A stretch of DNA of 64,000 nucleotides from Eledone cirrhosa (taxonomy: Eukaryota). The DNA lies in NCBI GenBank assembly GCA_964016885.1, contig OZ024744.1:53320001-53384000 (forward strand), in the 5' to 3' direction. The notes beneath the pieces were generated by a model. The model was not told the origin of the DNA and did not search any database. It was given only the letters and a program-made list of their open reading frames with translations. How positions within the stretch are numbered: the first letter of the stretch is position 1; every line of letters begins with the position of its first letter. Shown here in pieces: positions 1 to 40,552 of the stretch. The position numbers and the translations under genes were made by a program.

Positions 1-3000
1 AGAAACAAAAGAAAAAAATAAACTATCTCGCGATATCGAAATGAATTCACCCAAAATGAACTCTTCCACACCAGAACTGAAACTAAAATTAACAATAACA
101 AAAATAACGATAACAACAACAGCAACAATGAGAATAAGTAAACCCTATCTTTTGCCAGAGTAGCAAAAAAGTGCGAAGCAATCCAGGTAACTCAGGAGGA
201 ATTAGAAGAAGCCAAAAGAATGGTAAGGAAAGATGGGTACAGGGTCAGCCCCCCCCCCCCACATACACACCTAATAAAATGCAGCAACGGCGCCTATGCA
301 CCGTGTCTTATCGAACGATTAACATAACATCGCGCCAAATGGAACAGGAGTCCCAAATACAAAAAGCTTTGGGACATGTGTGGGCAAAAAAACCCACATC
401 GGACGTGGGCAGAAATATGGAACCGTGGACGTGTTTTTTGAAATACCACAGGAGGCCAGAGAACACTCCACACTCGTCCCAAGCTATTGTGGCCAGAGAC
501 TCGTGAAGATCAGGGTGATCCACGTTCCACTGGCCATAGAAATTCCCTGGCTAATAGCTGCCGTCCTCGCCGGCATCGAGGCCAACACCAAGATAATCGA
601 AATAGCGAAAGAAGTGCAGGAGAACTGGTCCGGATCTGGGATGGAGCTCCTGATCCAAGCGGACCAAAAAAGCATTGAGGAGATCCCAGAGGTAATAGAC
701 CTCACTGACGGTAGCCAGCTCACCGTAATCTTCCATGGCAGAAGGTCTAGTTGTGTCGTTTGTGGTGAAGGAACCCACCTAAGGGTTTTTGCCATCAGGC
801 TAAAATGTTGAGGCCACTTCTCTTACCCACCCCAGTGACAACAACCCAAATGTTCACACCACCTCCTCACTTGCATCACACAGAAACGTACACGACACTA
901 AAACCAAAATTCCCAAAAGACATCGGAGACTTCCGACAAGCACTCTCCAGGAGGATTTATAAGGACATCCTTCCAGAGGAGGCCACAAGCAGTGAAAAGG
1001 ATGGACAAACCTTCCTTTCTCTAGGAGAAGTAAGCTAAGTGGTCTTTCCAATCTTTTCCACTCCATTTAAACATGACCTCACTCAGAATAGGCAGCATAA
1101 ACGCCGTGGCTTGGGGTCGTCATGGAAGCAGAGCCACCTGCTCAGCGACCTCAGGTGACTAAACATAGATGTAGTGGCCATCAGCGAGACCAGAATCTCC
1201 GAAGCACGGGCCTTCGAACCGATCTTCGGTGGCTACGATGTGTACGCATCTCCCAGCCGTCCTGGATCGGGGGGAGGAATTGCTGTGCTTTTTTGGAGAG
1301 GTTTGGATCTCGCCATACGGGCCATCTTCTTGGACCCAGAAGGTAAGTTGGTGGTGCCGGACGTGACCAGCGGAGACGGGCAAGCTTTCAGCGTAGTGGC
1401 CGTCTGTGTCCCGACAGGAGCAGGGCGGCCTGATTTCTTCCGGCGTCTGGAGAACTTTCTTGGAACGTGCCGCACTTTAGTGTTAGTGGGCGACTGAAAC
1501 GGGCTCTTAAATGGACGCTAGGACTGTGTGGGATTAGCGGATAGGGGTGGAGGGTGCAAGAGCCTCACCAACCTGCTCAGGCGTTTTGAAGAGTCTGACA
1601 GGTACCGATTTGATTTCCCGAATGTTCCAATGTGGACTTGGACAAATCGCATAGGGTCATCCAGATCATATCTAGATAGAGTATTTTGGGGGAAATAGAT
1701 AGGTCTAACATAGGCTGTCCACAATTCAAGATAGTCAGCTACACGGACCACAAATTCGTGATCTGTGTGCTTGATTTAGATAGGCTTCATAGACGAGGAC
1801 CCTGCTTCTGGAAGCTAAATTCGTCCTTAGCAGCGCGCAAGGCCTACAGAGACGGATTAGCGAACTAGTTAAGCGGGCGTTGACGGGGCCATCGTCAACA
1901 AGTGGTGGTTTGCTCTGAAAAGAGTGATTAGAATAGAGTCCATTAGGTTTAGCAAAGCTTTAGCAATAGAGAAAAATAGAGCAGTTAAAAAATTAAACGA
2001 GGCGCTTAGCAAAGGCATCGCGACCGACGTACTTGCGGCGAAATTGGCCCTTGACCAATTCTTCAATGCAAAGCACGAAGGATGCGTTGTCAGAGCTAGG
2101 GTGCGTGCTCTCAGTCACGAGGGGACGAAAGCCGTTCAATGGGCCCGAGTGGCGGAGGCGCGTCGTGGAAACAAAGGCACGATCCGGTCTTTGGTGGACC
2201 ACGACGGGCGCATGCTACTCGATCACGGGCAAATGTGTGAAGCTTTTCAGCGACAATTTGCACAGCTGTTCGGGAGCAGCTGCGGGCCGGATCTGAGGCG
2301 GAGTGTTGCCAAAAGCCGATAACAGCCGCTGAAGTACGGGAGGCAATGACTGGCTGCACAAGGGGTAAATCGCCTGGTTTGGATGGTCTACCCTATGAAA
2401 TTTACGTACGGATGCTAGACTTGTTCGGAGGCCTCTTGGCGGACGTCTACCAAGGATGTCCCCTCTCGTCTCTCTTGTACGTAGTATTGACTCTCGAGCC
2501 ATCGCTGCACAAACTGGATACTTTGAGGGGGGTCCCGCACGAACTAGGATGCGGAAGATCCATGTCAGCATATGCGGACGATTTCACCGTAGTGGTGTCG
2601 AACGCCAAACACATCGAGGCGATCGGCACTACACTAAGATAATACGAAGCGGTGACAGGAGCAATGATCAACCAGGAAAAGTCAGTGGGCCTGCAGCTCG
2701 GCACCTAGAGAGGCAGGTCCATGCCGTCCAACAGCGTCGTCGGACGCTGGACAGACGGACCGGTTAAATTGCTAGGGGTCTGGTTCGGTCCGGACCTCCA
2801 GATGGTCAAAAACTGGGACGAGGTGACGAGCAGGGTGAATTCTCTCACCCAGAAATGTGCGGAGAGGAAGCTATCCCTAAAAGGACGAGCGGAGGTGGCT
2901 AACGCGTACATCGCGTCTGTCATCTGCTACCGCCTGACCGTCGTACCTTGTCCTACGCCTCGCCTGACTGCGCTGGAGCGTTTGCTCTTTCGCTTTATAT

Positions 3001-4163
3001 GGAAGGGACGCGCTCCGTTGGTCAGGCGGTCCATCTGCTGTCAACACCCGCTACGTAGAGGGCTGGGCATGCCGTGACTGATGATGCGCAGACACGCGCT
3101 CAGGCTACGACATCTCCACCTCTTCCTCGACGATGATCAGGTGTGGTCGCTGTTTGCTAGACACGTATTTCCCCAGCTCGTTTCCTTGACGGAGCTGCAG
3201 TCCTGGGCCATGCGAAGACCGAGAGGGAGCGCTCACAGCCCTCGACCAATCGGGCAATGTGATCGGTGGAAACTCCACCTCGACGTTTTATAGAGGATGA
3301 GTGGAGGGGAAGAGCGACGACGTACTTGGGGAAACTCTAGGCGTCGACGAAAATCAACTAGCCAATCTCTTCGGAAGGACTTTCGGGCCGGGGCCTATGG
3401 ACAACTTCCAGAAATCCCTGGCCTGGCAGTGCTACCGAGGAGCTTTGCCAGTTCGGGATAAACTCTACAGGCATGGAGGTGCCGCCAGCCGGGCATGTCC
3501 GAGATGCGCGCAGGATGACGAAAGCGTTCTGCACGCACTCGTCCAGTGTCCGAGCATTGCTGACTTTTGGGTTTATGTCGAACACCTGCTGTCACGTGTA
3601 GGACGGATCCAGCTATCAGCTGAGTCCATTGTGAGGATTGCGCCGCTCTCTTCCTTTAGCCGGGAAGGGCAGGCAGTTTTTATCTGCCTGGTGGCCATGG
3701 CGAAAGAGATAGTATGGTGGACACGTTTGAAAGGGCTGAAGACGAGCACTTACCTCTTCGGTGATGCCCTGAGTAACTTTTTCATATTTCATTTGAAAAG
3801 GAAAATCAGGGTAGAGAGTGAAGTGCTCTCTTCCCAGCATTTTGTTGGAAGATGGGTGAGAGAAGCAAGAATGGCCCGAGTGAATGGGCCTACTCTGAGT
3901 ATGTGTCTGTAAATTAAAGGTGGAAAACTGGGAGAGAGCACTTGCCCTGGTGGTCAGGGTCACTGTGGTCTTTTAATGAGCTTTCTCCACAAATGTCCCT
4001 CGGCAGTATCCCCCCTATTGGGGAATTTTTCATTGTTATTTTTTATTACATCCTCTTGTTTTGGGTTTTTTACACGCATAAATGCCCATTTGTACCGTCC
4101 TGTATTGTCCTGTACTGTCCTTAATGTCTACTTTATGTAAACCCTTGTAGTTAATAGAGAAGC
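1..4163 (+). mobile_element. Tx1/L1-clade non-LTR retrotransposon, family Tx1-A, copy 1 (degenerate; 5' end outside the window)
   Basis: ORF1 remnants (380-811, CVVCGEGTH knuckle). APE pieces (AISET, LVGD, YTDH). RT remnant GCPLSSLLY...AYADD with the RT core deleted near 2450. C-terminal CPRC..LHALVQC in ORF 3301-3912. The 3' UTR ends AATAGAGAAGC followed by (ATT)n. Collinear with 30732-36437. Confidence 0.93.
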
Positions 4164-4218
4164 ATTATTATTATTATTATTATTATTATTATTATTATTA
4201 TTATTATTATTGTTATTA
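4164..4218 (+). repeat. (ATT)n microsatellite junction between tail-to-tail Tx1-A and Dong-A
   Basis: Direct reading of the sequence. Confidence 0.97.
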
Positions 4219-40444: not shown

Positions 40445-40462
40445 TTATTATTATTATTATTA

Positions 40463-40476
40463 TTAATAAAGAAATC
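40463..40476 (+). mobile_element. ~14-nt Tx1-A terminal stub embedded in (ATT)n
   Basis: TTAATAAAGAAATC is identical to the last bases of Tx1-A at 30691-30704 and 36424-36437. Confidence 0.7.
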
Positions 40477-40552
40477 ATTATTATTATTATTATATATGTA
40501 TACATGTATATATATATATATATATATATATATATATATATATATATATATA

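Follow-up and report, generated by a model that had tools for sequence, protein, structure and literature searches.

Why do retrotransposons of unrelated lineages stack, in fixed orientation, in one and the same trinucleotide repeat? The question is raised by a 64,000-nt stretch of the Eledone cirrhosa genome (hereafter the window; contig OZ024744.1, positions 53320001-53384000, in an assembly of 3.0 Gb), in which positions 1-40493 hold a chain of long interspersed elements (LINEs) linked by (ATT)n tracts. Its members are copies of a Tx1-like LINE with an APE-type endonuclease and a reverse transcriptase (RT), and of two Dong-like families, Dong-A and Dong-B, with an RT and a restriction-like endonuclease (RLE). 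We consider it probable that the Tx1-like element inserts on the ATT strand and the two Dong-like elements on the AAT strand, that they prime from opposite strands and leave ATT repeat on both sides, and that chains of fixed polarity grow as a result.

The evidence that carries this reading comes from the 5′ ends (heads) of the elements across the genome. Tx1-A heads, counted by a 20-base head sequence, have ATTATT immediately upstream in 1651 of 1728 cases and AATAAT in none (0/1728), against a background of 365 among 400,000 positions, sampled from 20 arbitrarily chosen stretches of 10 kb; a single phase accounts for 95.5% of these heads. An ATT tract precedes 30/30 Tx1-A and 30/30 Tx1-B heads in sets that were ranked by likeness and that each include the window copy. 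Farther upstream the sequence is varied and consists of unique DNA, tails of a short interspersed element (SINE), Tx1 tails or Dong ends, and the pattern is therefore not one amplified block. The head common to both Dong-like families occurs 1255 times in the genome, and among the first 30 heads by position 27 are preceded by (AAT)n, in variable phase; a single-phase test gave 2/1255, a figure of little weight. Truncated Dong copies likewise have their 5′ junctions at (AAT)n (10/11 for Dong-A and 9/9 for Dong-B, counting junctions that lie inside the locus, from 30 loci per family).

Polarity is equally consistent. Among 666 distinct tracts, drawn from loci selected around these elements, 127 Tx1 heads lie on the plus and 0 on the minus strand of the repeat, and 42 Dong heads lie on the minus and 0 on the plus strand. 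With tails counted, the ratios are 277:2 for Tx1, the two exceptions being short palindromic tracts, and 181:0 for Dong; in 36 tracts a Dong tail meets a Tx1 tail. On contig C1 (1-93 Mb; pairs at most 12 kb apart, binned null, 2000 randomisations) heads cluster 4- to 11-fold over the null, with 10 Tx1-Tx1 pairs (null mean 1.6, maximum 11), 7 Dong-Dong pairs (0.6, 4) and 10 Tx1-Dong pairs (2.2, 10), all 10 of the latter in opposite orientation. A preliminary description had proposed from the window that the lineages use one target, keep strictly opposite orientations and stack; by head counts, tracts and clustering this holds genome-wide.

Within the whole window, 16 ATT tracts of at least 4 units lie on the plus strand and 0 AAT tracts of equal size do; 14 of the 16 fall inside 1-40493. 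In the chain, self-comparison, reading frames and Pfam place every APE-RT piece on the plus strand and every RT-RLE piece, of either family, on the minus strand, as first described. The picture of about a dozen insertions in one (ATT)n-joined array needs amending: all 11 tracts named for it were located within 2 bases (11/11), but the block at 12836-21946 has no ATT joints, and there are therefore two arrays, split by this Penelope-like block. The features are as follows (UTR, untranslated region; ORF, open reading frame).

1-4163, plus: Tx1-A copy (APE-RT LINE) with an internal deletion; the head, preceded by an ATT tract, is outside the window, 423 bases to the left
4164-4211, plus: (ATT)16 linking the Tx1-A tail and a Dong-A tail
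4212-6829, minus: Dong-A (RT-RLE), 5′-truncated
6830-6849, plus: ATT tract
6850-10233, minus: Dong-B, 5′-truncated
10234-10274, plus: ATT tract
10275-10980, minus: Dong-A 3′ piece, with RLE domain and 3′ UTR
10981-11027, plus: ATT tract in which one unit is ATC
11028-12835, minus: Dong-B 3′ half, whose distal end meets the Penelope-like block without an ATT tract
12836-21946, unstranded: Penelope-like block of 9.1 kb (RT/GIY-YIG frames on minus, inverted repeats), outside the ATT chain
21947-22067, plus: (ATT)40
22068-25308, minus: Dong-A without 5′ UTR and with an internal deletion of 305 bases
25309-25362, plus: (ATT)18 separating the back-to-back heads of Dong-A and Tx1-B
25363-27192, plus: Tx1-B 5′ UTR and ORF1 (an alternative 5′ half; ORF2 is common with Tx1-A)
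27193-27212, plus: ATT tract in place of about 730 bases of Tx1-B, absent from other Tx1-B copies
27213-30704, plus: Tx1, 5′-truncated (ORF2 and 3′ UTR)
30705-30731, plus: (ATT)9 from this Tx1 tail to the next Tx1-A head
30732-36437, plus: Tx1-A with both ends present and broken frames; APE from 32897; terminus AATAAAGAAATC
36438-36473, plus: (ATT)12
36474-36540, plus: SINE 3′ stub, part inverted, with its own ATT tail at 36541-36556
36557-36855, minus: Dong-B 3′ stub
36856-36877, plus: ATT tract
36878-40444, minus: Dong-A with an open 1138-aa RT-CCHC-RLE frame (36961-40377), supposedly full but about 1 kb short of a complete 5′ UTR
40445-40493, plus: ATT tract, 12-base Tx1 tail stub (40466-40476) and ATT tract
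62975-64000, minus: Tx1-C (sister family), which continues for 4457 bases past the right edge of the window and is flanked at each end by (TATC)n, not by ATT

Leftwards, the first array reaches about 1 kb beyond the window, where an older variant of the Tx1 tail (-1044 to -463) opens the ATT chain. The SINE tail stub and the additional tract at 36541 are members of the chain that the preliminary description lacked. Since the window copies are 1-10% divergent, have truncation points unlike one another, and belong to an architecture repeated on many other contigs, misassembly is unlikely; a tandemly duplicated or collapsed array was rejected on the same comparison of the copies. Nor is the locus a special landing pad: it is one among many such loci genome-wide. 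The intervening block, putatively Penelope-like by its motifs, has RT frames on the minus strand at 14657-15423 and 17257-20106, the second also with GIY-YIG, and an inverted repeat pair (15814-16618 / 20398-21202; 800 bases, 96%). Words near 21720-21830 are, by eye, presumably hammerhead-like.

An intact natural Tx1 copy (locus L251) encodes a 697-aa ORF1 and an 1139-aa ORF2, the latter with an N-terminal APE domain (PF03372), an RT (PF00078), a zf-RVT domain (PF13966) and a C-terminal CCHC motif. ORF1 carries a C-x2-C-x4-H-x4-C knuckle and has CCHC/ZCCHC3-like atlas neighbours at 0.91-0.93; a Pfam search of it gave nothing above cut-off. Complete ORF2 frames were found at four loci, and intact frames are known for the Tx1 and Dong kinds alike. 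The best solved relative of ORF2 is human L1 ORF2 (E 3e-51, residues 5-854), with R2 at 6e-22 through the RT alone, and sequence comparison places the element in the L1 group, nearer L1 than R2. Its 43 homologues bear no clade-informative names, and metagenome contigs gave no confirmed relatives with flanks. The Tx1 label, like the Dong label, is a putative one that follows architecture, target and characteristic motifs rather than phylogeny. Tx1-A and Tx1-B have a common ORF2 and 3′ UTR (94.6%) and distinct 5′ UTR and ORF1 sequences (65% over about 520 bases), a difference that looks like a swap of the 5′ module. The Tx1 tail motif occurs 7591 times in the genome. At one locus (L353, C1:46017500-46027000) two Tx1-A copies stand face to face, fused internally and each with an ATT tract in its own orientation, likely through inversion or recombination.

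The Dong-like elements encode a single frame with RT, CCHC and a PD..D..K restriction-like nuclease, without APE. The best solved relatives of these proteins are R2 proteins, matched via the nuclease, and their homologues have no clade-informative names; we take the minus-strand elements to be putative Dong/R4 members from their motifs, architecture and target. Dong-A and Dong-B (L244, L249) have their first 390 bases in common (75%) and are elsewhere unrelated at the DNA level, and (AAG)n runs are frequent at Dong 5′ junctions. A search for a 5′-end ribozyme gave no Rfam hit of note, and a home-made descriptor resembling the hepatitis delta virus (HDV) ribozyme, which was rough and had no positive control, gave no matches. 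The ages of the families overlap, with median identities to one natural copy of 95.1, 94.0 and 96.7%, and so give no order of arrival.

How Tx1 meets its target can be read from the junctions of complete and truncated copies. Among 79 loci anchored at the 3′ end, 12 copies are full-length, 37 are truncated and 30 do not reach the 5′ end, so that 49 resolved copies enter the comparison; 29 of these loci were ranked by likeness, and five hits among positions 31-55 were left out, four of them as already sampled. At least 5 ATT units stand at the 5′ end of 12/12 full-length and 6/37 truncated copies (Fisher p=2e-7). In full-length copies resolved at both ends (from 66 loci), the 5′ tract measures 5-25 units in 46/46, and no convincing duplications of unique sequence flank these 46 copies. 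A long in-phase 5′ tract is the hallmark of full-length Tx1 copies. Truncated copies show short duplications at 8 loci, two being near-duplicates (e.g., ATTATTCCTA, ATTATTAAGTACGT and ATTATTGTTGTTGGTG); these are 5-17 bases long, start with ATTA and run on into unique sequence, and the enzyme can therefore use a short motif. The Tx1 nick motif is thus likely short.

Does insertion renew the target? A host repeat with an internal ATT/GTT tract is represented by 1083 empty sites, with a mode of 6 units and mostly interrupted by GTT (about 22/100 are pure by eye). This repeat of 1083 copies is a landing site of Tx1, with 4 heads and 12 tails. The four full-length Tx1 copies within it have pure 5′ tracts of 11, 6, 10 and 9 units, and two filled sites with paired 5′ and 3′ tracts carry 11+16 and 6+17 units. 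The earlier proposal that each insertion leaves fresh target on both sides is borne out by a higher ATT content of filled than of empty sites, but at two sites only; renewal or lengthening of the ATT tract by insertion is likely. One Tx1 tail is followed by the entire interrupted host tract, and the nick of this insertion therefore lay at the left edge of the tract; taken with the duplications, it points to a Tx1 nick at the left border of ATTA(T).

The SINE uses the motif and polarity of Tx1. It has 155,000 tails genome-wide, of which 8023 have at least 5 pure ATT units and 95% fall below 5 units. Tx1-A heads follow SINE tails in 138 cases, none of them (0) within 11 bases of the SINE end. 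Of the whole SINE copies read in arbitrary stretches, 9/9 have flanking duplications, mostly beginning ATTAT. The SINE, present in the window at 36474-36540 and 42541-42850, has the end CCTTGTGCC.AAAGTAGAAACA plus ATT, which resembles the Tx1 end, CCTTGTGG..AATAAAGAAATC plus ATT. Judged by sequence, the SINE is possibly mobilised by the Tx1-like element, another partner LINE being conceivable.

Several points weigh against a strict form of this reading. Tails adjoin ATT by definition, so that heads and truncated junctions alone test targeting, and 21 of the 37 truncated Tx1 copies lack any ATT unit at the 5′ junction. Such copies in part show what the preliminary description had named as contrary evidence, ATT as a mere 3′ tail with random 5′ flanks, and the Tx1 family is therefore not strictly (ATT)n-specific at the nick. 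About 12 truncated copies with long tails show neither 5′ ATT nor a duplication, and may reflect target deletions or later truncations. The net gain of ATT rests on the two paired sites, and the pattern used for empty sites is blind to tracts longer than about 11 units. Among SINEs preceding a Tx1 head (12 rows), 6 of the 8 that are readable have long ATT 5′ of the SINE itself, the remaining 2/8 lying in short sites with 18 and 24 units ahead of the Tx1 head. A 3′ tract of at most 3 units is found in 1/12 and 2/46 full-length copies vs 15/37 truncated ones. Because SINEs so often sit in long ATT and full-length copies are rarely short-tailed, long tracts often predate the insertion and are chosen as well as made. 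Finally, 2 of the 10 close Tx1 pairs are in opposite orientation; the one inspected is an internal rearrangement.

The sister family Tx1-C has 68% DNA identity (about 57% in APE in cleaner copies). Its heads are preceded by (TATC)n in 24/30 cases, the other six lying in a CT-rich tandem repeat, and its tails are followed by (TATC)n in about 24/30 by eye; (ATT)n occurs at neither heads nor tails. In Tx1-C, tail, 5′ flank and target have changed jointly. A further Tx1-C-like copy, at about -15800 to -9900 left of the window, has TATC at both ends.

LINEs insert by target-primed reverse transcription, and under this route the opposite orientations imply that priming would use the AAT strand in Tx1 and the ATT strand in Dong. 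In the mechanism that we propose, the Tx1 enzyme would nick the AAT strand where a short ATTA(T) motif has its left border, and an AUU-ending Tx1 RNA could pair with the freed DNA end; Dong would carry out the mirror reaction on the ATT strand. The 5′ end of a full-length Tx1 copy might then be joined through pairing to ATT that lies upstream; such joining would require some AUU units at the RNA 5′ end and would explain why heads occur almost exclusively after tracts of at least 4 units. Variable duplication lengths together with a single head phase suggest such pairing of full-length cDNA, to which we give roughly even chances; the test of this 5′ leader on SINEs had a mostly contrary or ambiguous outcome. 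Tail synthesis, duplication and slippage would add ATT units, so that each copy could provide two new targets, and SINE tails may serve as further seeds. We offer only tentatively, and think doubtful, the fuller scheme in which Tx1 RNA with AUU at both ends makes two long tracts per full-length copy and drives the 155,000-copy SINE, Dong exploits the tracts from the other strand, and the sister lineage switched tail, leader and target to TATC together.

Specificity could instead lie in the RNA: a relaxed nuclease might nick AT-rich DNA, and only nicks that pair with the AUU tail of Tx1 or the AAU tail of Dong would be extended. A site no longer than ATTAT can suffice for truncated Tx1 copies and for SINEs, the Tx1-C target is identical to that element's own tail, and repeat-like pairing of RNA and target has been proposed for SART1 (PMC7265360). 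However, all four full-length insertions in the host repeat have a pure 5′ tract, against about 22/100 pure empty sites, and the specificity of SART and TRAS moves with endonuclease swaps (PMC7265360); we regard this explanation as possible but on the unlikely side. It does bear on the initial proposal that two endonuclease classes converged on one trinucleotide: the target is common to both, but convergence is not shown by this, as pairing of the RNA tail could set strand and site.

A second explanation dispenses with the 5′ AUU leader, full-length copies inserting or surviving only in long tracts that already exist, and the arrays being selected safe havens. That full-length copies are flanked by long tracts on either side speaks for it, as do the 6/8 host SINEs already within long ATT and the absence of heads from the first 11 bases beyond a SINE end, even though 95% of the tails are short. 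It fits less well with duplications of 5-17 bases at truncated copies while 95.5% of heads share one phase, with filled sites exceeding empty ones in 2/2 cases, and with the 18 and 24 units that separate the two short-site SINEs from their heads, and we likewise hold it to be less than probable. That ATT is a mere 3′ tail of a non-specific Tx1 which Dong targets later, the array being a passive by-product or a misassembly, would suit the truncated copies without 5′ ATT and the 36 tracts in which the two tails adjoin, but is very improbable given the 1651/1728 heads after ATTATT, many behind unique DNA, SINE tails or Dong heads, the identical layout on many contigs, and window copies unlike in sequence and length.

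Opposite priming by two LINE classes in one repeat, the reading that we favour, has partial parallels. Dong targets TAA microsatellites, including in a snail (DongBg), with Dong of Bombyx mori and DongAg as named relatives (PMC3812793). The present families resemble the Dong/R4 clade in their TAA target and single RT-RLE frame, with variable 5′ junctions, but differ in being two families joined by a common 5′ sequence (390 bases, 75%) and in sharing tracts with an APE LINE. The B. mori Dong carries an HDV-like ribozyme (PMC3774820), in contrast to our rough scan of the present families, which found none. Among Tx1 elements, Kibi and Koshi target (TC)n and (TTC)n (PMC3812793), and crocodilian elements target (TTCC)n/(TTTC)n (PMC4494074). 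These are likewise APE-RT LINEs of the L1 group with the repeat at either end (PMC4494074), but neither (ATT)n nor (TATC)n is one of the targets named in the portions of that text available; the present elements also differ in their invertebrate host, thousands of copies and two ORF1 variants on one ORF2.

TRAS1 and SART1 enter the Bombyx (TTAGG)n repeat in opposite directions (PMC7265360), but both are APE elements confined to telomeres, whereas the microsatellites that APE and RLE elements have in common here are dispersed. Keno (Tx1, APE) and Utopia (RLE) both insert in U2 small nuclear RNA (snRNA) genes (PMC4640811), so that the use of one host sequence by both endonuclease classes has precedent. 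Fixed host-gene targets are, however, consumed by insertion, whereas the ATT tract is split and likely lengthened. The same likeness and difference apply to R1 and R2, both of which insert in 28S ribosomal DNA (rDNA). For R2 RNA with upstream 28S sequence, uniform 5′ junctions have been explained by pairing of the cDNA with the upstream target (PMC3774820). R2 may by analogy serve as a model for the in-phase Tx1 heads, although it uses a ribozyme cut, none of which was found here, and the Tx1 leader is hypothetical. A literature search, which covered neither Repbase nor supplementary family lists, returned no ATT- or TATC-specific Tx1, and, Repbase again aside, no microsatellite shared by an APE and an RLE element. 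A report of transposable element (TE) hotspots in Octopus vulgaris lists Dong-R4 and L1-Tx1 as recently active, and the word 'target' does not appear in its main text, as far as available (PMC13282606); a cephalopod TE paper has them as abundant or active and is silent on targets in its accessible part (PMC8967140); the accessible parts of two further papers (PMC9004415 and PMC3747384) added nothing about targets.

Each ingredient thus has precedent; what appears to be undescribed is their combination, along with the two new Tx1 targets and the signs that the target grows. The mechanisms by which LINEs target microsatellites have been called poorly understood in a review (PMC3812793), and the present elements provide a direct test system: two sister families of APE elements, with about 57% identity in the nuclease, have ATT and TATC as their targets, intact natural copies exist, and an unrelated RLE family occupies the other strand of the ATT repeat. 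ATT microsatellite markers in such genomes will often lie at LINE ends and call for caution. Insertion likely renews the ATT target, as it does not renew targets in rDNA or snRNA genes, and such renewal could underlie TE hotspots like those described in Octopus vulgaris (PMC13282606). If the joint switch to TATC and the self-built niche are true, nature would have supplied in the two families a pair on which changes of LINE specificity can be dissected, and target renewal would be a mechanistic source of octopus TE hotspots.

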